From an uncultured Desulfuromonadaceae bacterium (GTDB taxonomy: Bacteria; Desulfobacterota; Desulfuromonadia; Geobacterales; Pseudopelobacteraceae), in assembly GCA_964292275.1 (NCBI GenBank), contig CAXYUZ010000011.1, positions 13,575 to 77,574 of the forward strand: 64,000 nucleotides of DNA, in the 5' to 3' direction. Under the pieces are notes generated by a model, which saw only the letters and a program-made list of their open reading frames with translations, had not been told where the DNA came from and did no database searches. Position numbers and translations under genes: made by a program. Below, piece after piece: positions 1-62,396 of the stretch; position 1 is the stretch's first letter, and each line of letters begins with the position of its first letter.

Positions 1-1842
1 ATCACGCTCGAAGGACAGGAAAAAGACGTGACCACCGCCGGTCTGGCCCGCATGAACATGATTCTGCACGACTTCCCGACCGCCAACATTCTTTCTGGCA
101 ATACACTGGCCGCCCCCAAATTCAAAGACAAAGAGCAGTTACGCACCTACGACTATGTGGTAGCCAATCCGCCTTTTTCCGATAAAACCTGGAGCACCGG
201 CCTCACACCGTCCAATGACCCCTATCAGCGTTTCACCTGGGGAGAACCGCCCACCAAGCAGGGGGATTACGCCTATCTGCTGCACATCATTCGTTCCATG
301 CAGAGCAGTGGCAAGGGGGCCTGCATCCTACCGCACGGTGTGCTTTTCCGCGGCAACGCAGAGGCGACTATCCGACAGAAACTTGTCAAATCAGGCATTC
401 TCAAGGGGATCATCGGTTTGCCAGCCAACCTGTTTTACGGCACCGGCATCCCGGCCTGTATCCTGGTGCTAGACAAGGAAAACGCCACCAGCCGCAAGGG
501 TCTGTTCATGATTGACGCCTCCAAGGGATTCATCAAAGACGGCAACAAGAACCGTCTGCGGGAGCAGGATATTCACAGGATCGTCGATACATTTACCCGT
601 CAGGATGAAAGCGATCCTCGCTACGCCCGGATGGTGCCAGTCAGCGAAATCTCCGACCCTAAGAATGATTTCAACCTCAACCTGCCGCGCTACATCGACA
701 GCAGTGAACCGGAAGACCTGCAGGACATCAACGGACATCTGCACGGCGGCATCCCGGAGCGCGACCTTGATGCGCTTAGCGCTTACTGGCAGCAGCTTCC
801 CAGCGTGCGTGCCACTCTGTTAGAGTCCGCCGGACACCCCGGTTATGCCCGCCTAAAGATGCCACTGACGGAGGTCAAGCCCGCCATCCTTGGCCATACT
901 GAATTCACCGCCTTCAACCAGACCGCCACCAAACTCTTTACCGACTGGCGCACAGCCAACAGTCCGCGTCTGACCGGCTTTGATAAGGATGGACACCCCA
1001 AGGCGATGATTGAAACCATTGCCGAGGATCTGCTGGCAGCCTTCCGCCAGGCTCCGCTGCTGGATGCCTATGACATCTACCAGCACTTGATGGACTACTG
1101 GGCCGAAACCATGCAGGATGACGCCTACCTGATATCCGCCGACGGCTGGATCAAGGGTGCCCAGCCTCGCGAAATACTCCAGGTCAAAAATAAGGAGAAC
1201 AAACTTGTCTGGCCTGAGCCGCATGACTATTTGAAAGGCAAGCGCCGCTTCAAGTCAGACCTGATTCCCGCGCCAATACTGGTTGCCAGGTATTTTGCAG
1301 CTGAGCGGGATGCCATCGAAGCGCTTGATAATGACCTGGAGTCACTTGAACAGCAACTCAGCGAAATGCGCGAGGAACATGGCGGCGATGATGGACTGCT
1401 TGTCGAAGTAATTGAGGGCGAAGGCGAAAAGCAGAAAATTGTCGCAAAGGTTCTCAAGGCACGCCTGAAGGAGATTGGCAAAGACCCGCTATATGAAGAT
1501 GAACGAGAAGCGCTGGAGGCTTACGCGAAACTGATGGAGAAGCAGACCAACACCAAGGCCAAGCGTAAAGCCGCGCAGGAGGCGCTGGATAAGAAAATCG
1601 ACGCCAAATACCCAGCACTGACCGAGACCGAAATCAAGTCGTTGACAATTGATGACAAATGGATATCGCGGCTATCGGCAGCCGTTCAGGGAGAACTGGA
1701 CCGCGTTTCACAGACCCTCACCGGGCGCATCCGCGAACTGGCCGAACGCTATGCCACGCCGCTGCCACAGCTTGTTGATGAGGTGGCCGCCTTGGCAGCC
1801 AGGGTGGATGAACACCTCAGGCGGATGGGGGTGGCGGAATGA
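1..1842 (+). CDS. hsdM: Type I restriction-modification DNA methyltransferase subunit HsdM (5' truncated by window edge)
   Basis: Frame 1 is open from base 1. N6-adenine MTase motif VANPPF and an HsdM-like C-terminal coiled region. The stop overlaps the next gene start (ATGA). Confidence 0.85.
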   Translation: MTLEGQEKDVTTAGLARMNMILHDFPTANILSGNTLAAPKFKDKEQLRTYDYVVANPPFSDKTWSTGLTPSNDPYQRFTWGEPPTKQGDYAYLLHIIRSMQSSGKGACILPHGVLFRGNAEATIRQKLVKSGILKGIIGLPANLFYGTGIPACILVLDKENATSRKGLFMIDASKGFIKDGNKNRLREQDIHRIVDTFTRQDESDPRYARMVPVSEISDPKNDFNLNLPRYIDSSEPEDLQDINGHLHGGIPERDLDALSAYWQQLPSVRATLLESAGHPGYARLKMPLTEVKPAILGHTEFTAFNQTATKLFTDWRTANSPRLTGFDKDGHPKAMIETIAEDLLAAFRQAPLLDAYDIYQHLMDYWAETMQDDAYLISADGWIKGAQPREILQVKNKENKLVWPEPHDYLKGKRRFKSDLIPAPILVARYFAAERDAIEALDNDLESLEQQLSEMREEHGGDDGLLVEVIEGEGEKQKIVAKVLKARLKEIGKDPLYEDEREALEAYAKLMEKQTNTKAKRKAAQEALDKKIDAKYPALTETEIKSLTIDDKWISRLSAAVQGELDRVSQTLTGRIRELAERYATPLPQLVDEVAALAARVDEHLRRMGVAE

Positions 1843-2861
1843 CGAAGGAAAGGAAACTGCAAATCCGCAACAGCACCGCCGAGTTCCTGATCTTCACTCG
1901 GCAGGCGGGCGAGACCGGCATTGAGGTACGTGTCGCTGACGAAACGGTCTGGCTCACACAGAAACTTATCAGCGTCCTTTTTGACAAGGGGCGCAGCACC
2001 ATCACCGAACATCTGCAGAACATCTTTGCAAGCGGCGAACTGGATGAAAAAACAGTATGTCGGGATTTCCGACACACTGCCAAGGATGGCAAGGACTACA
2101 CTACACGCTTCTACAATCTTGACGCTATCATCGCCGTCGGCTTTCGTGTCAACTCCGCCCGCGCCATCCAGTTCCGCCAATGGGCCACCGGTATCCTGCG
2201 CGACTTTGCCATTCGCGGCTATGTGCTGGATAATGAACGATTGAAGAACGGTGCATTCCTGAACAAGGAATATTACGACAACCTGCTGGCAGAAATCCGT
2301 GAAATCCGCGCCAGCGAACGCCGTTTTTACCAGAAGATTACCGACATCTACGCCACCGCGCTGGATTACAGCGTTAGCGCTGAAACCACGCAGACCTTCT
2401 TTGCCACTGTGCAGAATAAACTGCACTTTGCCATTCACGGACACACCGCCGCCGAGCTGATTGTCGAACGGGCGGACAGCAGCAAGGAGCGCATGGGGTT
2501 GACCACCTGGAAAAACGCCCCCCACGGCAAGATTCTCAAACCGGATGTAGTTGTTGCCAAGAACTACCTCACCGAAAAAGAGCTGAAATCCCTCGACCGT
2601 ATCGTCACCATGTACCTGGACTACGCCGAAGACCAGGCCGAACGGAGAATACCCATGACTATGCAGGACTGGGCGCAGAAACTGAACGCCTTTCTCCAGT
2701 TCAACGAACGCGACCTGCTCGACCATCCCGGCAAGGTAACCGCCGAGGTTGCCAAAGCGTTTGCCGAAAGCGAGTTTGAAAAATACCGTGTTGTGCAGGA
2801 TCGTCTGTTTGAGTCTGATTTCGACCGGATGGTGAAGCGGCTACAGAAGGAGCAGGCATGA
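1839..2861 (+). CDS. rhuM: RhuM-family (virulence/Fic-like DNA-binding) protein embedded in the Type I RM operon
   Basis: 340 aa. N-terminal sequence (LIFTRQAGETGIEVRVADETVWLTQKLISVLFDKGRSTITEHL...RFYNLDAIIAVGFRVNSARAIQFRQWAT) is the typical RhuM family. 4-bp ATGA overlaps with hsdM upstream and hsdS downstream. Confidence 0.8.
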   Translation: MTKERKLQIRNSTAEFLIFTRQAGETGIEVRVADETVWLTQKLISVLFDKGRSTITEHLQNIFASGELDEKTVCRDFRHTAKDGKDYTTRFYNLDAIIAVGFRVNSARAIQFRQWATGILRDFAIRGYVLDNERLKNGAFLNKEYYDNLLAEIREIRASERRFYQKITDIYATALDYSVSAETTQTFFATVQNKLHFAIHGHTAAELIVERADSSKERMGLTTWKNAPHGKILKPDVVVAKNYLTEKELKSLDRIVTMYLDYAEDQAERRIPMTMQDWAQKLNAFLQFNERDLLDHPGKVTAEVAKAFAESEFEKYRVVQDRLFESDFDRMVKRLQKEQA

Positions 2862-4129
2862 GTGGAGAAGTGAAGCCGGGATACAAGCAGACGGAAGTAG
2901 GGGTGATTCCGGAGGAGTGGGAGGTGAAGCGGCTTGGTGAGTTAGCAAGTTTTGTTACCAGCGGCTCACGAGGGTGGGCACAGTTCTATTCTGAAAGTGG
3001 AGCCCTGTTTATTCGGAGCCAAAATGTTCGTGATGGCAGGCTTAGTTTCGACGACACCCAATATGTTACACCGCCGATTGGGACTGAGGGTAATAGAACC
3101 AAAGTGGAGCTGAATGATCTGTTAATAACTATAACTGGCAACAGTGTCGGCAACGTTGCTCTGGTGGCTCAGGCATTCGATGAAGCCTATATCAGTCAGC
3201 ATGTTGGCCTTGTGCGTTTAAATGAGCCTAAGTCGGCTGCGTTCATCTGTCGATATCTTTCTCCCAGTTCACCAGGAAACCCACAGATTACAGGGAGTCA
3301 GTCTGGTCAAAGTAAGCCCGGCCTGAATCTGCAAAACCTTAGAGATTTTTGGATTGCTCTTCCACCAACAACTGAGGAGCTCTATGCGATTGCGGCTGCC
3401 TTGAGCGATGTGGATGAACTGTTGAACGGACTGGACCGGCTTATCGCCAAGAAACGTGACCTTAAAAAGGCCGCCATGCAGCAACTCCTCACCGGCAAAA
3501 CCCGCCTACCAGGTTTTACTGGGGATTGGGAGGTAAAGCGATTAGGAAGTACGGCTACTCTCAAAGCACGCATTGGCTGGCAAGGATTAACGACAGCAGA
3601 ATATCTTGACAGCGGGGATTACTATTTGGTCACAGGCACAGAATTCAAGAATGGCTACATCGACTGGAACAGCTGCCACCACGTAGATGAATCTCGCTAC
3701 ATGCAGGACAAATACATACAGTTGAAAAGACATGATGTCCTAGTTACAAAGGATGGAACTATTGGCAAGGTAGCTTTAATTACTGAACTTCCAAAACCAG
3801 CTACTCTTAATAGCGGTGTTTTCGTAATACGGCCTTTAGAAAATGCTTTCCATCCAGAATTTTTTTATTATTTGCTCTGTTCTAAAGCTTTCAAGGAATT
3901 TCTTGGGCAACTCAGTGCCGGGTCAACGATTAACCACCTTTACCAGAAAGACTTCGTAAGTTTTACTTACAAAACTCCTCCAAGTATTGAAGAACAAGAA
4001 GCCATAGCTACTGTTCTATCCGACATGGACGCCGAACTGGCGGCGCTGGAAGCGCGGCGCGACAAGACCCGCCTGCTCAAGCAGGGGATGATGCAGGAGC
4101 TCTTGACCGGGAGGACAAGGCTGGTGTAA
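2858..4129 (+). CDS. hsdS: Type I restriction specificity subunit HsdS (two target-recognition domains)
   Basis: 423 aa. Two-TRD architecture with conserved central and C-terminal repeats (LLTGKTRLPGF...WEVKRLG ; LLTGRTRLV). The second TRD (about 3540-4000) is markedly AT-rich, typical of exchanged TRDs. Confidence 0.85.
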   Translation: MSGEVKPGYKQTEVGVIPEEWEVKRLGELASFVTSGSRGWAQFYSESGALFIRSQNVRDGRLSFDDTQYVTPPIGTEGNRTKVELNDLLITITGNSVGNVALVAQAFDEAYISQHVGLVRLNEPKSAAFICRYLSPSSPGNPQITGSQSGQSKPGLNLQNLRDFWIALPPTTEELYAIAAALSDVDELLNGLDRLIAKKRDLKKAAMQQLLTGKTRLPGFTGDWEVKRLGSTATLKARIGWQGLTTAEYLDSGDYYLVTGTEFKNGYIDWNSCHHVDESRYMQDKYIQLKRHDVLVTKDGTIGKVALITELPKPATLNSGVFVIRPLENAFHPEFFYYLLCSKAFKEFLGQLSAGSTINHLYQKDFVSFTYKTPPSIEEQEAIATVLSDMDAELAALEARRDKTRLLKQGMMQELLTGRTRLV

Positions 4130-4135
4130 ATCTTC

Positions 4136-4243
4136 TCACGCGGAGACGCGGAGAGCGCAGAGAAAGGCTTTTAAAAATGTGGAGTTTAAACCTATTACAA
4201 AGACTTGCTTTCCGATTTTCTCCGCGTCCTCCGCGGCTCCGCG
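4136..4243. repeat. Imperfect inverted repeat / stem-loop in the hsdS-GxxExxY spacer
   Basis: Left arm cacgcggagacgcggagagcg (4136-4156) against right arm ttctccgcgtcctccgcggctccgcgtg (4216-4243), giving about 19 bp of complementarity around a roughly 60 nt loop. Confidence 0.5.
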
Positions 4244-4270
4244 TGAAACTTTTGACTGTAATCACAGAGG

Positions 4271-4714
4271 TTGACCATGAAAGAACTCGACGACATAACT
4301 GGTATCATCATCGACTCCGCAATAAAAATACACAAAGATATTGGCCCCGGCCTTCTGGAATCAGTTTACGAAACAATACTTGCACGTGAGCTGGATCGGC
4401 GAGGCCTCAAGGTGGAACGGCAAAAGATTATCCGGTTTGAGTACGACGATATGATTTTTGAGGAAGGTTTTCGTACCGACCTGCTCGTCGACAGCCGTAT
4501 TGTCTTGGAACTTAAATCCGTGGAAAAACTGGCCCCAGTCCACAACAAGCAACTGCTTACCTATCTGCGTTTGATGAATCTCTCCGTCGGCCTGCTTATC
4601 AACTTCGGTGCCGCCACCCTCAAAGAAGGCTTAAACCGTGTTGTCAACAACTACTCCCCCCCAACATCTCCGTATCTCCGCGTGGATAAAAAGCAGGAGC
4701 AGCCCTATGCCTGA
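4271..4714 (+). CDS. GxxExxY-family protein (PD-(D/E)XK nuclease superfamily)
   Basis: 147 aa. Motif [10 protein letters not shown] followed by D...ELK signature residues ([13 protein letters not shown]). The stop overlaps the hsdR start (ATGCCTGA). Confidence 0.8.
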
Positions 4715-7700
4715 ACAACCCCGTTCCGAACGCAAAACACAGAACCGCGTTATTAACCTGTTTACAGACAGCCTTGGTTATGATTACCTCGGCGAATGGA
4801 ACAAGCGCGATAACAACCGTCCCATCGAAACGGAATATCTACGGGCAAACCTTGCGAATCGTGGCTACTCCCCTACCCATATCTCCGCCGCCCTGCAGAA
4901 GCTGGAAACTGCTGCCGATGCCACCGGCATTACTCTCTATCAAGCCAATATGCGTACCTATCAGCTTCTGCGCTATGGGGTGCCGGTACAGGTTGCCGCC
5001 GGACAGGCACATGAGACAGTTCACCTGATTGATTGGACAGACACGGGAAATAACGACTTCGCCCTGGCCGAGGAGGTAACGCTCAAGGGAGGCTATGAGC
5101 GCCGACCGGATATTGTGCTTTACATTAACGGTATCGCTATTGCCATAATAGAGCTCAAGCGCAGCTCGGTAGAAATTGCCGACGGTGTGCGACAGCTCAT
5201 CACCAATCAGGAGGAGATTTTCAACAAGGGCTTTTTCAGCACGGTGCAGCTTGTTTTGGCAGGCAGCGATTCACAAGGAGTGCTCTATGGCACCACCGGA
5301 ACGCCGGAACAGTTTTTTGTGCAGTGGAAGGATGAAAATAATGAAGAATTGACGGCAAATAGTCATTCTCAATTATCATCTCTCAATTCTCAATTCACCG
5401 CTGGTGAACTGCTCGACCGGCCACTGGCACAGTTGTGCAGCAAGGAGCGGTTGCTCGACCTGATTCGCAACTTCGTTATTTTCGATGCCGGTCAGAAGAA
5501 GGTGCCGCGCCAACATCAGTTTTTCGGAGTGAAAGCGGCCCAGGAACGCATTGCCAAGCGCGAGGGTGGCGTTATCTGGCATACGCAAGGGAGCGGCAAG
5601 AGCATCCTGATGGTGCTGATTGCCAAGTGGCTGCTGGAGTATGACCCGGACGCCCGCATCCTCATCATCACCGACCGGGACGAGTTGGACAAACAGATTG
5701 AGGGGGTTATGAAGAACGCCGGTGTAATCGGCGCTGAATCCCCCTCCCCGCGTATAACATCACGGGCTGAATTTATCCAAAAGCTTGGGGAGTCTACGCC
5801 ACGGCTGCTGTGCGCCCTGATCCACAAGTTCGACGTGGCCGACCTGAAGGGGCCATCATCCAAGGTTACCGGACGCTTCTATGTATTTGTGGATGAGTGC
5901 CACCGTACCCAGGGTGGCGACATGAACAAGCAGATGAAGCGCTGGTTGGAGGGTGCTATCTTCATCGGCTTTACCGGCACACCGCTCCTGCGTAAGGACA
6001 AGCAGATGACGCGGGATGTTTTCGGCACCTACATTCATACCTACAAGTTTCATCAGGCTGTAGCCGACAAGGTCGTGCTTGACCTGAAATATGAGGCTCG
6101 CGACATTCCGCAGAAGCTGACATCACGAAAAGCCATTGATGACTGGTTTGAGAAAAGAACAAAGGGATTGAACAACTTTCAGAAGGCTGTGCTGCGCAAA
6201 CGCTGGGCCACGCTTGAGAAGCTGATGAGCTCCGGCGGTCGCAAACAAATGATCGTCAACAGTATCATTGAGGACTTCGGCCTGAAGCATCGCTTGAGCA
6301 ACGACCGCGGCACGGCCATTCTGGTGGCAGCCAGTATCTACGAAGCCTGTCATTATTTCCGACTGTTTCAGAATACATTCTTCGGCTGTTACTGCGGCAT
6401 CATCACCTCTTTCGAGCCAAACCCTAATGCAATCTCACGCGAACCCAAGGAGAGTGACGAACGTTACAAGTTCGACACCTACACCAAGCACGTACTCAAG
6501 AGTGGCCAGACAACCAAACAGTATGAAGATGAGGTCAAACGCAGATTTATCGAGGAACCGGCCAATCTCAAGCTCTTGATCGTAGTTAGCAAGTTGTTGA
6601 CCGGCTTTGATGCGCCGAGCTGCACCTACATCTATCTGGACAACGAGCTGCACGACCACAACCTGTTCCAGGCCATCTGCCGCACCAACCGGCTTGACGG
6701 AGACGACAAAGATTACGGCTATATTGTGGACTTCAAGGAGTTGTTTGGCGACGTACAGCAGGCCATTGCGGTTTACAGCTCCGACGAACTGGACATTGAC
6801 GAGGCTGGCGGTGATAACAATGTCCACCTGAAAAACTGGCTGGAAGAAGGGAAGAAACAGCTCGACCAGGCCCGAGAGGCGCTGCGTTATCTGTGCGACC
6901 CGGTTCCAGTACCGCGCGAAATGGAGCAATACCTACACTACTTCTGCGGCGACGCCACCAATCCAAACGCCCTGAATGAGACCGAACCGCTGCGGGTTTC
7001 CTTCTACAAGGCGGTTGCCACCTTTGTCCGCGCCTTTGCCGCCATTGCCCAGGAGTTGACCGACGCAGGCTATACGGATGCCGAAGCGGCAGCCATCCAG
7101 AAGGAGGTAGAGTTTTATAGCGACATCAGAGGCGCCATCAAGAAGCACTCCGGCGAGGAGCTAGATATCAAGCCCTACGAAGCGGATATGCGCCACCTGA
7201 TCAACAGCTATATCCAGGCTGACCCGGCGGCAGAGCTGGGGGAGCTGGGCGATATGTCACTGACCGAGCTTATCATTGAGACCGGCATCCATGACGCCAT
7301 TGCCAAGTCACTCAACAAAAAGGGCAAACTCTCCAAAAACGCCATTGCAGAAGGAATTATCAACAACGTCCGTAAGAAGATAATCAGAGAACAACTGACC
7401 GACCCTCGGTTCTACGAGCAGATGTCCAAACTGCTTGATGACCTGATAAAGCAAAGCCGGACCGACGCGAAAGCCTACGAAGAGTTTCTGCGCAAGGCCG
7501 AGGCGTTGGTAAAACGACTGGCGACACGGCAACCAGAAGCAGGTATTCCGGCAGTTCTGCACGGGAAAGACGAGGCCATAGTGCTCTTCAACAATCTGTC
7601 TACGATTCCTGCCACCACATTCCAATACCCTACTGAAGACGAGGAAAGGGCAATGCTTGCCCTTGAACTGGATCATGTTGTCTGTTCAGAAGCCCCTGCC

Positions 7701-7826
7701 AACTGGCAAGGAGACGACGCGCGGGAGATTCAGGTTATGAATGCCTTGTACCCCAAGATGTCCCGTGACCGGGAAGCGACCAGAGCAATATTTGAAATCA
7801 TCAAGAATCAACCGGGCTACCAATGA
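4707..7826 (+). CDS. hsdR: Type I restriction enzyme endonuclease/helicase subunit HsdR
   Basis: Walker A HTQGSGKS and DEAH/DECH box [10 protein letters not shown], with a length typical of HsdR. Start chosen at ATG 4707 (MPEQPRSE...), overlapping the stop of the preceding gene. The track's 4638 start would overlap 77 bp. Confidence 0.85.
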
Positions 7827-8539
7827 ACACGACGATACAGATTGGGGAGCTGTCAATTCAGGTAACCAGAAAGAAGATCAAGAATGTCCACCTGTCAGTG
7901 CATCCGCCTGACGGTCATGTGACACTTGCCGCCCCCTCCGAAACCCGTTTGGAAGTGGCACGGGCCTATGCGATATCTAAGCTGGGCTGGATAAGGGAAC
8001 ATCAGGAAAAGCTGAAGAATCAGGCGCGAGAAACACCGCGCCAGTTCATTGAGCGGGAAAGCCATTATCTTTGGGGGCGGCGTTATCTGCTGACAGTTGT
8101 TGAGCAGGATACCAAGCCCAGCATAAAGCTCGATCATAAACGGATAACCCTGAACGTCCGCCCTGGAAGCTCTGTAGAAAAACGCGCAGACGTCATACAC
8201 GAATGGCACAAGTCACTGCTCCACAAGGTTGTGCCGGGAATTATCGCTGTATGGGAGACCAGACTAGGGATAAAGGTTGCGGGCTATTTTCTGCAGCGCA
8301 TGAAAACCAAGTGGGGAAGCTGCAATCACCAGGCAGGACACATCCGCCTCAATACCGAGCTGGTGAAGAAGCCGAAAGACCTGCTGGAGTATGTTATCGT
8401 TCACGAAATGCTGCATCTGCTGGAGGCAATTCACAGCGAACGCTTTATGACGTTACTGGATGAGCACTATCCGACTTGGCGAGAGGCCCGTGCAGAACTT
8501 AACGAACTGCCGCTGGCGGCTGAGACCTGGAGGGAGTGA
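7823..8539 (+). CDS. DUF45/YgjP-like zinc metallopeptidase (NCBI 'M48 family') commonly linked to hsdR
   Basis: 238 aa. HEMLHL (HExxH) motif in [23 protein letters not shown] overlap with the hsdR stop. Confidence 0.75.
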
Positions 8540-30614: not shown

Positions 30615-30700
30615 TAATATCGTGACATAGATTTTAAATGATGCGTTACGAGGCCTTGCCGCTAACACACCATTTAAAATCTGAGACTCCTGCAAAATAA

Positions 30701-30790
30701 TTGTCATCCCCGAGTGCCGTTATCAGGGATCCAGACTTTTCAGGCAATCAGAATCTGGATTCCCGATCAAAACCGCTTCGGGAATGATAA
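30701..30790. repeat. Palindromic copy of MITE-like repeat family (module + inverted module)
   Basis: ttgtcatccccgagtgccgttatcagggatccagact ... agaatctggattcccgatcaaaaccgcttcgggaatgataa. The arms are inverse complements and each resembles the 38024-38060 module. Confidence 0.6.
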
Positions 30791-30863
30791 TTTTGAACTT
30801 TTACAAGAAACTTGCTCAATATTTTTTACTATCACATCAACAGTAACCACAGGAGATCAAACC

Positions 30864-33137
30864 ATGGGCTTTATCATCAGTCACTACCAGCTATTAATCG
30901 GGCTGGTTCTGCTTATCATCCTGCTCTGGAACTCGATAGTCATTGTCGGCGGCAATGAGATTGCGGTTCTGGAACGCAAGTACTTCGGGGCCAAGATGCC
31001 GCAGGGGCGGGTTGTCGCCATGTCCAGCGAGATCGGCGTCCAGGCGCGTACCCTCGGCCCTGGCCTGCATCTGCTGATTCCGTTCCTCTACACGACTAAA
31101 AAACAGCTCTTCACCAACATTGCCGAAAATGAGATCGGTATGCTCGAATCCATTGACGGCGATCCCGTACCGGCGGGCAAGATCTTTGCCAAGGTGGTCG
31201 AAGGGCACAACGCCTTCCAGGACGGCGAAGCCTTCCTGCACAACGGCGGTGAAAAGGGGCCGCAGATCCAGATCCTTCCACCGGGTTGCTATCGTATCAA
31301 CCCGGCCCTGTTCCGGATCAAGAAGCTTCCCGCAGTGACCGTTGAAGAAAACGAGGTTGCCCTGATTTCCTCCGTGGACGGTAGCCCGATACCTCCCGGC
31401 AAGATTTTTGCCAAGGTGGTCGAAGGGCACAACGCCTTCCAGAACGGTGAGGCATTTCTACAGAATGGCGGTGAAAAAGGGCCACAGATTGAACTGCTCC
31501 CCCCCGGCACCTACCGGATCAACCTCGATCTGTTCACCGTCCGCAAGGTTCCGGTAGTCATCATCGACAAAGGTCAAATTGGCGTTGTAACCTCCATGGA
31601 CGGGGAACAGATCCCGGCTGGACGGCTTCTGGGACGTCAGGTTCCAAAACATTCCAACTTTGAAAACGGCCAGGCCTTCCTGCACAACGGCGGTCAGAAG
31701 GGGCCGCAAATTGACATACTGCTTCCCGGTACATACCGTATCAATACCGATCTGTTCCATGTCGAGATCAAGGATGCCACTGTCATCCCGGCCAACAAGG
31801 TCGGTCTGGTAACCGCACTGGACGGTGAACCGCTCCCCGAGGCCGAATATGTCGCCAAACCGGTCACCGGCCATACAGATTATCAGGATGCATCCAAATT
31901 TCTGACTGCCGGGGGGCAGCGCGGCCCGCAGTTTGATGTACTCAAACCGGGCACCTATTACATCAACCCGCTGACCTTCAAGGTCGAACTGGATGACGTG
32001 GCAATAGTCGAACGCGGTCAGGTAGCCGTTGTCGTCTCCAACGTGGGTGAGGAACCGCCTGAGATTAAAAACGCTGTGGAGAGCACCGACAGTGAATCCC
32101 TGCAGGGAGTGGACGAACGGGTAAATCTGGGGATTGAGCGCTATGTCGTACCAAAGGGATTCCGCGGTATCCAGCAGGAGGTGGCCGGCCCCGGTTTCTA
32201 CTACCTCAACCGCCGCGCCTACATCGCCTATGTGGTTGACACAACCAACATCAGCGTTGACTGGGACGACGGTGCAGAAACCCGTTTCAACCCGCTCAAG
32301 GTCGTCTCCCGCGACGGCTTTGAAATCAACGTATCGGTCAAGGTTGTTATCCGTGTCCGTCCGGATCAGGCACCATATATGGTCTCCAAGATCGGTTCCA
32401 CCGAGAATCTGATCCAGCATGTCATCCACCCGATGATCGACTCCAGCTTCCGCAACCAGGCATCATCCACCTCGGCGATGAACTTCATGCAGGATCGCCA
32501 GGAGGAACAGCGCAAGGCAGAGGAACGCGCCCGCAAGGAACTGGAAAAATACCATGTGGAATGCGTCTCCGTACTGATCTGCCAGATCATGCTGCCGCAG
32601 GATCTGATGGACACCCAGACCCGCAAGATCATTGCCCAGCAGCAACAGGCCATGTACCAGGATCAGCAGAAGGCCGAGCAGACCCGTATCGCCACCGAAA
32701 AAACACGGGCCGAGGCCGACCAGCAGAAAAATCTGGTAGAGGCGGAGATCGGCGTCAAGATTGCCGAACAGAACAAGGAGAAGGCGATCCGCTTCGCCGA
32801 GGGTGATGCCGAGGGGATCCGCCTCAAGGCAGAGGGTGAGGCCAAGGGTATCAAGGCACGCGGTGAGGCAGAGGGGGCAAAAATTCTCGCCATGGGTGAG
32901 GCGACTGCCAAGGCCTACGAACTGCAAAACCGCGCCGTCGGCCAGCAGGGTGTTACCGCCATCGAAATCGCCAAGCAGATTGCCAGCGGCAACATCAAGG
33001 TCACACCGGACTTTCTGGTTCAGGGGGGTGAAAACATGGGAGGGCTACTGTCGGCATTCCTGACCCAGATCATTGCCGGCAAACAGGCGGCTGCGACCGT
33101 CCAGAACAGTGATCAAACGGAAGTAAAAACGATCTGA
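30864..33137 (+). CDS. Flotillin-like (SPFH/band-7 + flotillin C-terminal coiled-coil) membrane protein with ~5 tandem N-terminal repeats
   Basis: Start at ATG 30864 after AGGAGA; the track start 30714 lacks an RBS. N-terminal TM segment. About five tandem repeats of roughly 75 aa of type (D/N)G.P.P.GKIFAKVVEGHNAFQ.GEAFL.NGGEKGPQI..LPPGTYRIN, then SPFH and an Ala/Glu/Lys-rich coiled coil (EAEGAKILAMGEA). Confidence 0.75.
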   Translation: MGFIISHYQLLIGLVLLIILLWNSIVIVGGNEIAVLERKYFGAKMPQGRVVAMSSEIGVQARTLGPGLHLLIPFLYTTKKQLFTNIAENEIGMLESIDGDPVPAGKIFAKVVEGHNAFQDGEAFLHNGGEKGPQIQILPPGCYRINPALFRIKKLPAVTVEENEVALISSVDGSPIPPGKIFAKVVEGHNAFQNGEAFLQNGGEKGPQIELLPPGTYRINLDLFTVRKVPVVIIDKGQIGVVTSMDGEQIPAGRLLGRQVPKHSNFENGQAFLHNGGQKGPQIDILLPGTYRINTDLFHVEIKDATVIPANKVGLVTALDGEPLPEAEYVAKPVTGHTDYQDASKFLTAGGQRGPQFDVLKPGTYYINPLTFKVELDDVAIVERGQVAVVVSNVGEEPPEIKNAVESTDSESLQGVDERVNLGIERYVVPKGFRGIQQEVAGPGFYYLNRRAYIAYVVDTTNISVDWDDGAETRFNPLKVVSRDGFEINVSVKVVIRVRPDQAPYMVSKIGSTENLIQHVIHPMIDSSFRNQASSTSAMNFMQDRQEEQRKAEERARKELEKYHVECVSVLICQIMLPQDLMDTQTRKIIAQQQQAMYQDQQKAEQTRIATEKTRAEADQQKNLVEAEIGVKIAEQNKEKAIRFAEGDAEGIRLKAEGEAKGIKARGEAEGAKILAMGEATAKAYELQNRAVGQQGVTAIEIAKQIASGNIKVTPDFLVQGGENMGGLLSAFLTQIIAGKQAAATVQNSDQTEVKTI

Positions 33138-35918: not shown

Positions 35919-37931
35919 TCAGAACCGCCAGGTTGCCTTGACTCGAAAACTGATCCCGTCCTGCGCAATTTCACGCAATGCCTCACCGCGGCTGTTATAC
36001 TGTTCAGAACCGGCCGGATGAGAGTAACGGGAATCAAACAGGTTATAGACCGAGGCAGATAGATCCAGATTTTCGATGATATCGCGGCTTAACAGCGTCA
36101 GATTAAAGATAACGCCCCCGGCGATCCGCTCACCAAGACTGTTCAGCCGGGCACTGTTGTAAACCCCCTCCAGGGTTGCAAAACTTTTCCTGAGCGGAAG
36201 GGGCGCCGTCAATGACGCCTTGGCGATATGGCGGGGTGAGTTGGTCACGAAACGTGCTGAATTAGTATTTCTTACATCCTGATAGGTATAATTGATCCGG
36301 CTGATAAAACCGTTTTCCCAGCGCCCCTCGGCATAGAGTTCCGCCCCCTTGGCCTCAACCTGGCTCTGATTCTCGTAAACCAGAAGGCCGTTTGCATCAG
36401 TGACCTGTTCGATCAGATCGCTGATTCGGGTATAAAATCCGTTGATACCAGCCTTGTAATTTTCACCGATATACTGGTCCACCCCTAGCTCGACCGTACG
36501 AATCTTTTCCGGCTTAAGATCCGGATTGCCGCGGGAACTGATCTGATCACCATAATAGAGCTCATAGGCATTGGGTGCCCGGAACGCCTCACCATAGGAG
36601 AGACGCAGCACCGTTGTCAGGGACGGTTTCCAGATCAGGGCCGCACGCGGGTTAACGGTTGAACCGAAGTTGTCGTAATGATCCCAGCGCAAACCGGCAT
36701 TCAGTATCAGATTGTCAAGAATATGGTATTCGTCCTGCAGGTAATACCCCTGTACAAAGAGGCGGCGATTGCTGTCAAGGTAACTGTTGTATTGCGGCAG
36801 AACATCAAAATTCCGCTGCTGCTGACTGAACTGCCAGCGATGTTCCATACCGCCGGTCAACTGATGGGAACCAAGCGACTTGACAAGAAAGATGTCACTG
36901 CCGATCCAGTCCGCCAGCGTCGTATCACGATTAACCGTTCTTATCTGTGTAAGCTCATCCAGGCGGGGATAATCACCATCGAACTCATAATGGTTATAGG
37001 TCAGACGCGCGTTGATATCTGCAAACCCGGCATGGTGATTGTAGTTGATACCGGCCAGCGTATGACGGTCACTGATCTTGGCAGAAGGATCATTTGATGT
37101 CGTTCCATAGGATGCGGTGGGATTATCCTTGTCCCTGGTCTGGTGCAGCACCAGCATGGAGAAGTCCTTCCAGCTCCCCTTGGCCAGCAGATCCCAGGAG
37201 TTTTCACCATCCATCCCCCTGGAAATTCCGCCATTTGTCGCCGCATATTCCGGGAACCAGAGCTTCTGTATCCCGGCAATATCGCGATAGCTGCCGGAGA
37301 TCATAAAATCGGCGCCATTATCAAACTTGCTGCCACCGCTAACGCGCCCGGTCCATGCATTAAAGCTGCCGCCAGAGGCGGAGATTTCCCCCCCGGAAAG
37401 ACTGTTGCCATCACGGGTAATGACATTGATAACCGCCAGAAAGGCATTGGTGCCATAGAGCGACGAACCGGGACCACGGATAACCTCTATTCGCTCGATC
37501 AAGTCCATATCAACCGGGAAGTCGCTCCCCAGCGGGGCCTGTTCATATACCGCGTCATTCAGACGATAACCGTCAACCAGCAGCAGGATCCGGGTATTGT
37601 AATCACCCAGCGGACTGAAACCGCGCAGGCCAACATAGTGATAGCTGCGGTCGTAGGTCGTATAGAAACCACGTACCCGGTTCAGCGCCTCGGCAAGATT
37701 GCGATAACCGCTATTACGGATATCATCGCGGGTAATAATTGAAATCGATGCCGGGGCATCAACCAACTCCTGCTGATACTTGCTGGCGCCGGTAACCGTG
37801 GTCACCTCGGTATTAAGCAGTGATTCCAGCGCATTGGGTGAATTTTCAAGCGCAGCGACGATTTCACCGGCAAAGGTAAAAGGCGAGTTCAGGAGGAGAA
37901 ATAATACCATCAGTGGGAACGTTATCTTCAT
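35919..37931 (-). CDS. TonB-dependent outer-membrane receptor
   Basis: Signal peptide, a plug domain (DAPASISIITRDDIRNSG), a beta-barrel and a C-terminal aromatic (RF). Its stop lies 2 nt from the yfiR start. Confidence 0.85.
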   Translation of the reverse strand: MKITFPLMVLFLLLNSPFTFAGEIVAALENSPNALESLLNTEVTTVTGASKYQQELVDAPASISIITRDDIRNSGYRNLAEALNRVRGFYTTYDRSYHYVGLRGFSPLGDYNTRILLLVDGYRLNDAVYEQAPLGSDFPVDMDLIERIEVIRGPGSSLYGTNAFLAVINVITRDGNSLSGGEISASGGSFNAWTGRVSGGSKFDNGADFMISGSYRDIAGIQKLWFPEYAATNGGISRGMDGENSWDLLAKGSWKDFSMLVLHQTRDKDNPTASYGTTSNDPSAKISDRHTLAGINYNHHAGFADINARLTYNHYEFDGDYPRLDELTQIRTVNRDTTLADWIGSDIFLVKSLGSHQLTGGMEHRWQFSQQQRNFDVLPQYNSYLDSNRRLFVQGYYLQDEYHILDNLILNAGLRWDHYDNFGSTVNPRAALIWKPSLTTVLRLSYGEAFRAPNAYELYYGDQISSRGNPDLKPEKIRTVELGVDQYIGENYKAGINGFYTRISDLIEQVTDANGLLVYENQSQVEAKGAELYAEGRWENGFISRINYTYQDVRNTNSARFVTNSPRHIAKASLTAPLPLRKSFATLEGVYNSARLNSLGERIAGGVIFNLTLLSRDIIENLDLSASVYNLFDSRYSHPAGSEQYNSRGEALREIAQDGISFRVKATWRF

Positions 37932-37988
37932 ACAAAGCCCTCTTAAAAATGCCGACAGAAATCAGTAATAACGGGCCATCAATACAAA

Positions 37989-38125
37989 GCCTGATTAGCG
38001 TACATCTTCCACTAGTTACCAAAATTGTCATTCCCGAAACGTTTCTGATCGGGAATCCAGACTTTAACTTTCTGAAATTGTAGATCCCCGATAAAAACAT
38101 TCGGGGATTACATTCTGAATAGCGG
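37989..38125 (+). repeat. MITE/REP-like repeat element copy B (two internal hairpins)
   Basis: About 85% identical to 38941-39078. Hairpins ATTCCCGAaacgtttctgaTCGGGAAT and ATCCCCGAtaaaaacatTCGGGGAT. Confidence 0.75.
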
Positions 38126-38192
38126 AAAAATCACGCTCATCAGGATGCGAAATATTACTATTTTTATAACAGACAATTCACCAAAGGCAAGC

Positions 38193-38780
38193 TCAGGGCG
38201 ACTTCTGGCCGAACAGGCCGATCATCATAGCAGTGGGGTCCTGCAGTCCTTCTGGTCGCTTCCCATACCAGCCAGATGTCCATTTCAGGGCACCGGCGGC
38301 ATAGAGTTCAAAATGAAGCTGTTTCGTGCCACTGACCTGACCAATCACATCTCCCGCCGCCAGCCGTTGGGAGGGTTTCAGCAGGGGTTTGCGAAGTTCG
38401 GCGTAATTGGCAACAAAATCACCATGATCCACCAGAACCGCATAGGTCACCTCGCCGTTGCGGCGGATATAAAAACGGGCTATCCGGCGGACAACGCCAT
38501 CCTTGATCGCCCGCACATCCGTACCTGCCCCCCCTGGCGGGTAGAGGTCAACACCGGCATGCCGTCTGCGCCCGCCATTACGCGGCGCACCAAAGAACGG
38601 ATAATCATCCGACCCGCGCGGCCAGTGCCCGCAACCAATCGACGTATCCCTCTCAAAGGGATATCTGGGCCTGCCTTCAAAGGGTGGCGTCAGTGCACCG
38701 GCCCCATCGGCCAGGGCCACCACCGGCAAACAGATCAAAAACAACCATCCAGACAGCAGCAAATTTCGTATCATCTTCAT
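38193..38780 (-). CDS. M23 family (LytM-like) metallopeptidase, secreted
   Basis: Signal peptide. HxxxD (HAGVDL) and HxH-like (LHFELY) motifs. Flanked on both sides by direct copies of the 135-bp repeat. Confidence 0.7.
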   Translation of the reverse strand: MKMIRNLLLSGWLFLICLPVVALADGAGALTPPFEGRPRYPFERDTSIGCGHWPRGSDDYPFFGAPRNGGRRRHAGVDLYPPGGAGTDVRAIKDGVVRRIARFYIRRNGEVTYAVLVDHGDFVANYAELRKPLLKPSQRLAAGDVIGQVSGTKQLHFELYAAGALKWTSGWYGKRPEGLQDPTAMMIGLFGQKSP

Positions 38781-38940
38781 CCAATCACCTCAGGGGGAAG
38801 AATATCAGGCGACAAGCGATTGCGAAATCCATTTTTGAAAGGCTGAACAAGAAAATGAAACGATCAGTTCCGTACTGTCCGTTGAGGTTATCCGTGGAAT
38901 TCACTCCGCAAAACCGTAATCAACCGGGCTAAAAAATATG

Positions 38941-39078
38941 ACCTGATTAGCGTCAATCTTCCGTTAGTTACAAACTTTGTCATTCCCGAAACGATTCTGA
39001 TCGGGAATCCAGTCTTTAACTATTTGAAATCATGGATCCCCGATAAAGACATTCGGGGATGACATTCTTAATAGCAGA
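38941..39078 (+). repeat. MITE/REP-like repeat element copy C
   Basis: Direct-orientation copy of 37989-38125. Confidence 0.75.
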
Positions 39079-39277
39079 TGAATAGTTCTAATCAGAAAAC
39101 ATGATGGAGTTTTTTTGCAGAACACGCCGGGATCAGACAGAATCTTTTACCCACCAGCAGCCAAATGACTTTTCAATTGAAAAAAAATTCCGGCAACTGC
39201 ATTATTCAGAAGGATTGGAACTTATTGAAAGTAGAGACTAAGTGAAACCTGCTCTATAACCTGGTTTTTCCTCTGAT

Positions 39278-39362
39278 ATTGTTCCGGTGATTAAACATTT
39301 AAACCCTGCTGTAGGGGCGTATTGCATACGCCCAGATTGGGCGAACATCGATTCGCCCCTAC
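39278..39362 (+). ncRNA. Conserved ~85-nt structured element (copy 1), 5' of ABC-2 transporter operon; candidate cis-regulatory RNA or promoter module
   Basis: atattgttccggtgattaaacatttaaa...GTAGGGGCG tattgcatacgcccagattgggcgaacatcgatt CGCCCCTAC. A 9-bp closing stem with internal hairpins. Two further copies show compensatory changes. Confidence 0.4.
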
Positions 39363-39410
39363 TATTCATATATTTTATCACTGGATCAATAACAACAAGG
39401 AAAATGACAA

Positions 39411-58792: not shown

Positions 58793-59007
58793 TCACAAAG
58801 CTCCTGAAATCAGCAAATGTTTATACGTTTGCGAAATGTGCTTTTGTAACATATACGGCAATCAATGTATATAATTTTTCTGTTTCAGCTGGCACGGATA
58901 CCGCCTGCAGGCCGCCTTGGGAGCGCCCGTCAGGCAACAACTGAAAATTTGCCAGCACACAATTGCTGTGATATAGATGTAACCTTATTTTTGCATCATT
59001 CAACATA

Positions 59008-59091
59008 TTGTTCCGGCAGTTAAACATTAAAACACTACCTGTAGGGTCGTATTCATTCGCTCAGCTTGGGCAAACATCGGTTCGTCCCTAC
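59008..59091 (+). ncRNA. Conserved ~85-nt structured element (copy 2), 5' of yhbY operon
   Basis: catattgttccggcagttaaacattaaa...GTAGGGTCG tattcattcgctcagcttgggcaaacatcggtt CGTCCCTAC. The inner hairpin shows a C to U change, keeping a GU pair. Confidence 0.4.
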
Positions 59092-59168
59092 CGGTTCATA
59101 TTTAAACCACTGAAGCAATAAAAAACGCCAAAACAACTGACACACCCGAGTCACGAGGAGATTAATAC

Positions 59169-62278: not shown

Positions 62279-62292
62279 AAGCCTGCCGAGCC

Positions 62293-62368
62293 GTAGCTGT
62301 TCGCCCAATCAGGGCGCATGTAATACGCTTCTACATCAGGCATTTGAATATTTAACCACCGGAGCAAT
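62293..62368 (-). ncRNA. Conserved structured element (copy 3, reverse orientation, 3'-truncated), between convergent yraN and cstA
   Basis: Revcomp reads tattgctccggtggttaaatattcaaa...GTAGAAGCGtattacatgcgccctgattgggcgaaca. It shares the 5' two-thirds with copies 1 and 2 but lacks the closing-stem 3' strand. Confidence 0.35.
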
Positions 62369-62396
62369 AAGATCACCTGTTGCAACCCCCGCCAAT

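Follow-up and report, generated by a model that had tools for sequence, protein, structure and literature searches.

The question raised by this locus is how a single gene for a secreted peptidase of the M23 family came to stand between two direct copies of a short palindromic repeat. The locus lies in a stretch of 64,000 nucleotides from an uncultured Desulfuromonadaceae bacterium (assembly GCA_964292275.1, contig CAXYUZ010000011.1, positions 13,575 to 77,574), referred to here as the window, in whose coordinates all positions are given. An earlier interpretation made from the letters alone (the sequence-only reading) likened the arrangement to a composite cassette or a site prone to excision through the repeats. 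The two repeats, called here copies B and C, are instead very probably separate insertions of a 154-base non-coding MITE (a miniature transposable element with inverted repeats) of the IS1595 type, and not the ends of a gene cassette. On this view, two landing sites of the MITE enclose the short M23 gene, which is not a cassette; the cassette reading finds no support at this locus.

Extent and ends of copies B and C

The gene, the two copies, and the sequences that bound them are the following:

38193-38780, minus strand: M23-family peptidase gene, 195 aa, with a signal-peptide-like N-terminus
37990-38144, plus strand: MITE copy B, 155 nt, full-length match to the MITE profile (positions 1-154, 138 bits)
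37990-38012, plus strand: left terminal inverted repeat of B, CCTGATTAGCGTACATCTTCCAC, read directly against the consensus CCTGATTAGCGCTAATCTTCCGC
38122-38144, minus strand: right terminal inverted repeat of B, GCGGAAAAATCACGCTCATCAGG, pairing with the left repeat in a predicted long hairpin
37982-37989, unstranded: left target-site duplication of B, ATACAAAG, decayed, 5/8 match to 38145-38152
38145-38152, unstranded: right target-site duplication of B, ATGCGAAA, 5/8 match to the left one
38942-39096, plus strand: MITE copy C, 155 nt, full-length match to the MITE profile (145 bits)
38934-38941, unstranded: left target-site duplication of C, AAATATGA, 7/8 match to 39097-39104
39097-39104, unstranded: right target-site duplication of C, AAACATGA, 7/8 match to the left one

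The secreted M23 gene noted earlier between the repeats, on the opposite strand, is recognized as Pfam Peptidase_M23 (PF01551, E=8e-12). The repeats themselves had been described as about 85% identical and in direct orientation, and a repeat search agrees, aligning 37990-38143 directly with 38942-39095 at 84% over 154 nt; in the family alignment the two copies show 83% identity over 155 nt. The location given for the element (135 bp, at 37989-38125 and 38941-39078) holds, but its length does not: the true limits, 37990-38144 and 38942-39096, are wider because the outer terminal inverted repeats of both copies had been missed. In the family as a whole these repeats are about 23 nt long, with the consensus CCTGATTAGCGCTAATCTTCCGC...GCGGAAGATTAGCGCTAATCAGG, and B and C keep decayed but recognizable versions of them, the right repeat of C being among the decayed ones. 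Identity to the family consensus is 79% for B and 81% for C (other copies average 90%), and the longest identical stretch common to B and C is 18 nt. Both copies are non-coding, and the open reading frames (ORFs) that cross them are short, overlapping, and without family support.

Target-site duplications and copies elsewhere

The evidence for insertion of the element comes from a set of 21 unique, independent copies with both ends present, taken from the window, from 30 metagenome loci, and from one metagenome-assembled genome (MAG) of the Desulfobacteraceae. On average, 7.14 of the 8 nt preceding an element are repeated directly behind it, and in 13 of the 21 copies all 8 are; shifted flanks used as controls give 2.7-3.0 of 8. 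The duplications are 77% A+T. Further outward, T, G, and A occur at positions 9-11 in 32/42, 25/42, and 21/42 flanks, which corresponds to a symmetric target preference, TCA-N8-TGA. Ends that are inverted repeats, together with the 8-bp duplications of the target site, make MITEs of B and C. The sequence-only reading had called the repeats MITE-like or REP-like (repetitive extragenic palindromic), and both words fit: B and C are MITEs by their ends and duplications, and their core, like a third copy described below, resembles a REP doublet.

The repeats are not confined to this locus, which the sequence-only reading had named as a ground for refutation; elsewhere, full copies number more than 30, and the hairpin modules of the type they contain number in the hundreds. 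A metagenome scan for the left inverted repeat together with the module gave 31 loci, 30 of which hold the same 154-nt element with matching inverted ends and unrelated flanks. A near-perfect relative, found in the Desulfobacteraceae MAG by a scan for the module pattern over one genome per species, has 24-nt inverted ends (CCTGATTAGCGCTAATCTTCCGCT...AGCGGAAGATTAACGCTAATCAGG) with AAAGCCAA on either side. The inverted-repeat pattern of the MITE was absent from the viral contigs searched. The IS1595-type MITE family to which B and C belong was not found described.

This evidence also bears on the proposal of an integron origin, with B and C as attC sites and the M23 gene as a cassette of an array without its integrase. 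In its favour, two direct copies of an imperfect palindrome of about 150 nt do enclose a short gene here. Read directly, however, the ends of the elements (CCTGATTAGCG.../...CGCTAATCAGG) lack the RYYYAAC/GTTRRRY core sites, each element has its own 8-bp duplication, the copies elsewhere are solitary and lie in unrelated intergenic regions, and no integrase is present among the window ORFs scanned. The proposal is extremely improbable.

Some copies of the MITE have a more complex structure. Those at L134 7752-7959 and L148 9022-9206 contain insertions in their central spacer, one being a hairpin found also in a unit on contig L143 (see below) and the other a microsatellite with three repeats of CAGTCTGA. 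The flanks at L140, L145, and L004 reveal that some copies lie inside another palindromic repeat (...TTCCGTTCGCGCTGAGCCTGTCGAAG...).

Link to IS1595-family transposases

Inverted repeats of the same kind stand beside genes for IS1595-type transposases. A DNA search of plasmids with a stretch of metagenome contig L128 recovered an end, CCTGATTAGCACTAATCTTCCGC, on plasmid pIAE1 of Trichlorobacter lovleyi, which matches at 22/23 positions and lies about 75 nt upstream of a transposase ORF. This ORF has 211 residues with Zn_ribbon_IS1595 and DDE_Tnp_IS1595 domains and is about 50% identical to annotated IS1595-family transposases. On L128, the same inverted repeat (21/23) precedes, at a distance of about 100 nt, an ORF that opens with 69 residues matching Zn_ribbon_IS1595 (E=1.6e-14) and is then interrupted by another gene; as a query, this 69-aa fragment was too short and retrieved no homologue. 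A remnant of a transposase start beginning MKMNRIQF, as in pIAE1, is present on L143. Among the scanned ORFs of the 64-kb window there is no transposase, integrase, or Y1 gene. The sequence evidence suggests that B and C were transposed in trans by an IS1595-family transposase, and both are probably inactive now.

Members of the IS1595 family generate 8-bp AT-rich direct repeats (PMC12561309), and an archaeal MITE derived from this family, 165 bp long with 25-bp inverted repeats and an 8-bp duplication, is known (PMC3852290). This ISHwa6 MITE of Haloquadratum walsbyi (PMC3852290, Table 4) resembles the window MITE in size (165 vs 154 bp), in the length of the inverted repeat (25 vs about 23 nt), in its 8-bp duplication, in being non-coding, and in having an inverted repeat in common with an IS1595-type transposase gene. 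Contrary to it, the window MITE has bacterial hosts (Geobacteraceae and other 'delta' lineages), its interior, instead of deriving from the insertion sequence (IS), consists of two mutually inverted hairpins belonging to an independent repeat family, and no intact parent IS was recovered. The host of the window is placed in the Geobacteraceae, its RF3 being 92% identical to that of a 'Geobacter sp.' MAG and 86% to that of Geotalea.

The gene that interrupts the transposase remnant on L128 (8398-9372, JGI Ga0351948_1006) encodes 324 aa with an IS200-like Y1_Tnp domain and a DnaA C-terminal helix-turn-helix. A fragment of an IS3-like OrfA adjoins it, so that several IS remnants are piled up at this place.

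The hairpin core and copy A

The core of the MITE is an inverted pair of hairpins of about 35 nt, GTCATYCCCGA...TCGGGRATCCAG. The two hairpins that had been read in each copy, ATTCCCGA...TCGGGAAT and ATCCCCGA...TCGGGGAT, are both present in B and in C. In an alignment of the six modules of the window, every element has the first type followed by its reverse complement; the modules being mutually inverted, each element is a nested palindrome. Folding, which had been suggested as a check, predicts two small hairpins or one long hairpin, better than for shuffled sequence (z -2.5 to -5.4). The window has 4 matches to the pattern TCATYCCCGA-N8-14-TCGGGRAT where 100 shuffles of it predict 0.00, and a search of the window with an nhmmer profile of the module retrieved six modules, all of them within B, C, and a third copy, A:

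38024-38064, plus strand: hairpin module B1, ATTCCCGA...TCGGGAAT type, 24.8 bits (nhmmer and six-module alignment)
38079-38116, minus strand: hairpin module B2, ATCCCCGA...TCGGGGAT type, inverted relative to B1, 31.5 bits (nhmmer)
38976-39016, plus strand: hairpin module C1 (nhmmer module profile)
39028-39068, minus strand: hairpin module C2, 41.7 bits (nhmmer)
30698-30793, unstranded: copy A, a bare hairpin doublet, with A1 at 30700-30738 (plus) and A2 at 30752-30793 (minus)

Copy A corresponds to the third palindromic copy that had been placed at 30701-30790. It matches only positions 27-138 of the MITE profile (82 bits), shares with B and C nothing but the core, and has neither outer inverted repeats nor a duplication. 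It lies 84 nt downstream of the stop codon of a glycosyltransferase gene and, as the sequence-only reading had noticed, in the leader of a flotillin-like (Band7) gene, 70 nt upstream of the ATG at 30864. The gene call on the public contig begins at a GTG that falls within copy A and gives 30714-33137 (807 aa). The ATG at 30864 has an AGGAG ribosome-binding site about 8 nt in front of it, which points to a true Band7 product of 757 aa (30864-33137).

A long near-perfect hairpin at 30622-30689, TAGATTTTAAATGATG...CACCATTTAAAATCTGA, follows the glycosyltransferase stop codon immediately and ends shortly ahead of copy A. In E-value mode of Rfam it gives sub-threshold miRNA-like matches on both strands.

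A wide family of hairpin modules

The module extends far beyond the MITE. At least 119 genome loci were listed, and among the matches listed it appears under about 20 phylum-level labels. About 120 chance matches to the module pattern are estimated by our arithmetic in 596 Gb, and the family is nevertheless real because of four properties: the loop has one and the same length in 127/159 of the listed module matches, the flanks (G...CAG) are conserved, modules have partner modules nearby (convergent doublets are the commonest arrangement, with 61 of 108 neighbouring pairs), and the variable position of the stem covaries, being T-A in 101 of the listed matches, C-G in 48, and mismatched in 3. 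Bare doublets from many phyla have the ends YGTCAT...ATGACR and no duplication (1.9/8, n=74) and, copy A included, they cover only positions 27-138 or so of the MITE profile. Loci from several phyla hold further short families of hairpins (GTCATTGCGAGCGAAGCG..., ATTCCGGC...GCCGGAAT), which at times act as the doublet partner of the module.

This anatomy recalls the REPINs, in which a REP-associated tyrosine transposase (RAYT) moves paired REP hairpins in single-stranded form, and A, B, and C could all be doublets of this kind. Two inverted hairpins with a short spacer in each element are what a REPIN is made of (PMC3337134, PMC3116915), and the prevalence of convergent pairs, the bare doublets without duplication, the compensatory T-A/C-G changes in the stem, and the co-oriented copies on phage contigs point in the same direction. 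Y1 transposition, however, does not produce the inverted repeats and 8-bp duplications of B and C, so that this explanation could hold only for copy A and the core. Moreover, the 64-kb window has no Y1 or RAYT gene, and no protein family is enriched near the modules: in an all-against-all clustering of the ORFs from the listed loci no transposase emerged, the only families being histidine kinases with response regulators and ABC proteins. For all three copies, the REPIN explanation is very unlikely. The RAYT-like gene of L128 (Y1_Tnp with DnaA_C) was considered as the mobilizer of the module and rejected; it is inserted in an IS remnant and is not flanked by modules, and the RAYT-like gene at L119 is not flanked by them either.

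To our knowledge, the REP families known are specific to a genus or a species. Compared with REPINs (PMC3116915, PMC3337134), the core is likewise intergenic, free of target duplication, and able to form one long hairpin, whereas the module is conserved in sequence across about 20 phylum-level labels and phage, no cognate RAYT was found, and for B and C the route of movement, present or past, is of the DDE type. Another resemblance, and a resemblance only, is to the dRS3 elements of the Neisseria intergenic mosaic element (NIME) arrays (PMC3898611; ATTCCC-N8-GGGAAT), whose 6-bp inverted termini ATTCCC...GGGAAT are identical to those of the module. Both are abundant and intergenic, and both are proposed to flank and shuffle small gene units. 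Contrary to dRS3, the module has an interior of 13-15 nt instead of 8, conserved flanks (GTCAT..., ...CCAG) that belong to the unit, and no demonstrated link to the integration of filamentous phages. Searched as a string in the full texts of papers, the module matched only primers, and the available portions of Geobacter genome papers describe many multicopy sequences without the module among them.

Viral contigs also carry the module. A tailed phage (IMGVR_UViG_3300028837_002970; L161-L202, especially L201/L184/L172/L168) has at least 12 single modules, all on one strand, and its identity as a tailed phage was confirmed by the major head, adaptor, neck, and tail proteins (PHROGs). Relative to the genes the modules are on the opposite strand, and they occupy short gaps of the structural operon, often just upstream of the next ribosome-binding site; on other viral contigs they are co-oriented as well.

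Such positions raise the possibility that the elements are not mobile DNA, and are instead selected functional hairpins such as attenuators, mRNA stabilizers, or protein-binding sites. Their strictly intergenic positions, the strong covariation of the stem, folding better than shuffled sequence, the array in the phage operon, and a junction between MITE and TonB-receptor gene that seems conserved in two organisms with receptors only 35% identical would all be expected of functional sites. Yet the promoter and terminator scan of the locus gave chance-level results, with no T-tract terminators in or beside the elements; Rfam 15 returned no match at gathering score in the window, and in E-value mode only sub-threshold hairpins of miRNA precursors; the orientation relative to genes varies among contigs; and the duplications prove that insertion events took place. 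An explanation by function in place of mobility is unlikely. As a secondary co-option, a regulatory role could be compatible with insertion of B and C as MITEs, and a regulatory effect of the two copies on the neighbouring genes is conceivable.

Did the M23 gene travel with the repeats?

Two further genes define the setting of the copies:

35919-37931, minus strand: TonB-dependent receptor gene (Pfam), with B 58 nt upstream of its start codon
39411-40331, plus strand: ABC transporter ATPase gene (Pfam), divergent from the M23 gene, with C within their common 630-nt intergenic region

The TonB-receptor gene is the first of a row of receptor, YfiR-like, and GGDEF-EAL genes. Were the segment from B to C an exchangeable cassette or composite transposon, now or in the past, it would have brought the M23 gene to this place, or could delete it through recombination between the direct repeats. 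What speaks for this is, in the first place, the bracketing of the gene by two copies of one mobile element, and IS1595 members have been reported to form pseudo-compound transposons (PMC12561309). The duplications tell otherwise. As C has its own duplication (7/8), it was inserted on its own, and since the outer flanks of the B...C block match at only 4/8, the background level, the block did not arrive as one composite unit. Excision is no better supported. Efficient RecA recombination in E. coli has a minimum of about 25 bp, and B and C, 83% identical, have at most 18 identical bases running. B, C, and the M23 gene are all retained on contigs from three further samples (98.3-99.8% identity to the window), and no variant without the gene appeared, although the look-up could find only contigs that encode it. 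Exact-protein look-ups of the M23 peptidase, the ABC ATPase, and the YfiR-like protein led to the same population only. The GC content of the M23 gene (0.583) and its GC content at third codon positions (GC3) are like those of the neighbouring genes. A candidate for a rearranged variant of the locus, L205, was discarded as a low-coverage chimera.

Several observations weigh against a history of separate MITE insertions beside a resident gene. M23 homologues with 53-61% identity are found in five other organisms, all in the order bioA / M23 / bioD-bioB(-NosL) and without modules, and not at the site seen in the window. Outside the population the nearest homologues reach 61-66% identity and none exceeds 66%. 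Given this biotin context, and the lack of any closer homologue despite the presence of sister species in the database (those with a 92% identical RF3), the M23 copy of the window has moved or is a divergent paralogue. The absence of remnants of biotin genes or of other genes beside it, by contrast, speaks against a cassette. The duplication of B, at 5/8, is barely over background; the IS copies on pIAE1 and L128 are truncated, and an intact autonomous IS bearing the two inverted repeats was not recovered; and the count of MITE copies for the host covers the 64-kb window.

The strongest parallel to a cassette is on contig L143 (4950-5893, JGI Ga0209211_10014624), where a 928-bp unit is bounded by the inverted repeats of the MITE. 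Its parts are a left inverted repeat, the transposase-start remnant, a gene for a 170-aa response regulator, and a complete MITE; the 8-bp duplication on its two sides, TTTTTTAT, is perfect (8/8). This unit also weighs against separate insertion in that it lies upstream of a TonB-receptor/YfiR-like operon homologous to that of the window, at an apparently equivalent site, and the 20 nt after its MITE match, at 15/20 positions, the 20 nt between B and the TonB-receptor gene of the window; the two receptors are 35% identical. The likeness of the junctions hints at a shared, possibly cassette-like history. B may be an old insertion common by descent, or the site may be a hotspot. In the compound or pseudo-compound transposons formed by IS1595-family elements (Tn7560/ISApl4, PMC12561309), two copies with IS1595-type ends likewise bracket passenger DNA, and the L143 unit has a single outer duplication; in the window, by contrast, each copy has its own duplication and decayed ends, and there is no sign that B, M23, and C moved as a unit. 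Even with the response-regulator passenger of L143 in its favour, the composite explanation for the window is distinctly unlikely, and separate insertion of B and C remains the preferred reading.

Proposed mechanism and significance

The proposed mechanism starts from a MITE without genes, whose terminal inverted repeats of about 23 nt would be bound and cleaved by an IS1595-family DDE transposase acting in trans. This enzyme would make cuts with an 8-bp stagger at AT-rich targets, with the preference TCA-N8-TGA, and so give rise to the 8-bp duplications. B would have entered behind the M23 stop codon and ahead of the TonB-receptor start codon, and C the divergent promoter region of the M23 and ABC genes; both sites are intergenic, and the M23 gene would simply be a short one lying in between. 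Inside, the MITE would hold a captured inverted pair of hairpins of about 35 nt, of which copy A would be a bare copy, and this pair would belong to a far wider family that spreads by another route, without duplication.

Of these features, the wide hairpin family captured in the MITE is the more unusual part. A broader proposal, which is offered tentatively, joins the observations. The hairpin of about 35 nt, GTCATYCCCGA-loop-TCGGGRATCCAG, would be one module found under about 20 phylum-level labels and in tailed phages, where it forms co-oriented arrays between structural genes, and it would spread without duplication; captured between IS1595 ends in the Geobacteraceae and their relatives, it would have gained a second, DDE-driven route. 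Pairs of such ends may shuffle small genes, such as the M23 gene or the response-regulator gene of L143, into a hotspot upstream of the TonB-receptor operon.

In practical terms, IS1595-type MITEs inflate ORF calls, as in the Band7 gene, made 50 codons too long through copy A, and they create repeats that break assemblies. A MITE with a captured REP-like doublet inside also joins two kinds of small mobile elements usually handled apart, and the conservation of the hairpin sequence across distant phyla and phage calls for a common recognition factor or vector.

Other features of the window

The M23 peptidase belongs to a subfamily with a distinctive motif. The classical M23 motif at this position is HxH. 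In the window protein and its relatives P0002, P0005, P0009, P0014, P0018, and P0023 the position reads QLHFE, with the Q invariant in the 7/7 aligned, and HAGVD (HxxxD) is kept.

The window also holds three copies of another repeat family, about 90 nt long and unrelated to the first, at 39276-39365 and 59005-59095 (plus) and at 62290-62385 (minus), one of them only 180 nt from MITE copy C. It forms a hairpin, GTAGGGGCG...CGCCCCTAC, with inner palindromes such as GGGCGTATTGCATACGCCC, and has no match in Rfam.

Two larger loci complete the window. Between 43500 and 51100 there are RHS/YD-repeat toxin genes with a duplicated block of 2919 bp (segments 90-100% identical) and small downstream ORFs; this region is a polymorphic-toxin locus and adjoins a gene with a Fic domain. 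At 28-8539 lies a Type I restriction-modification system with methylase, specificity, and restriction genes, and a RhuM-family gene stands between those for the methylase and the specificity subunit.

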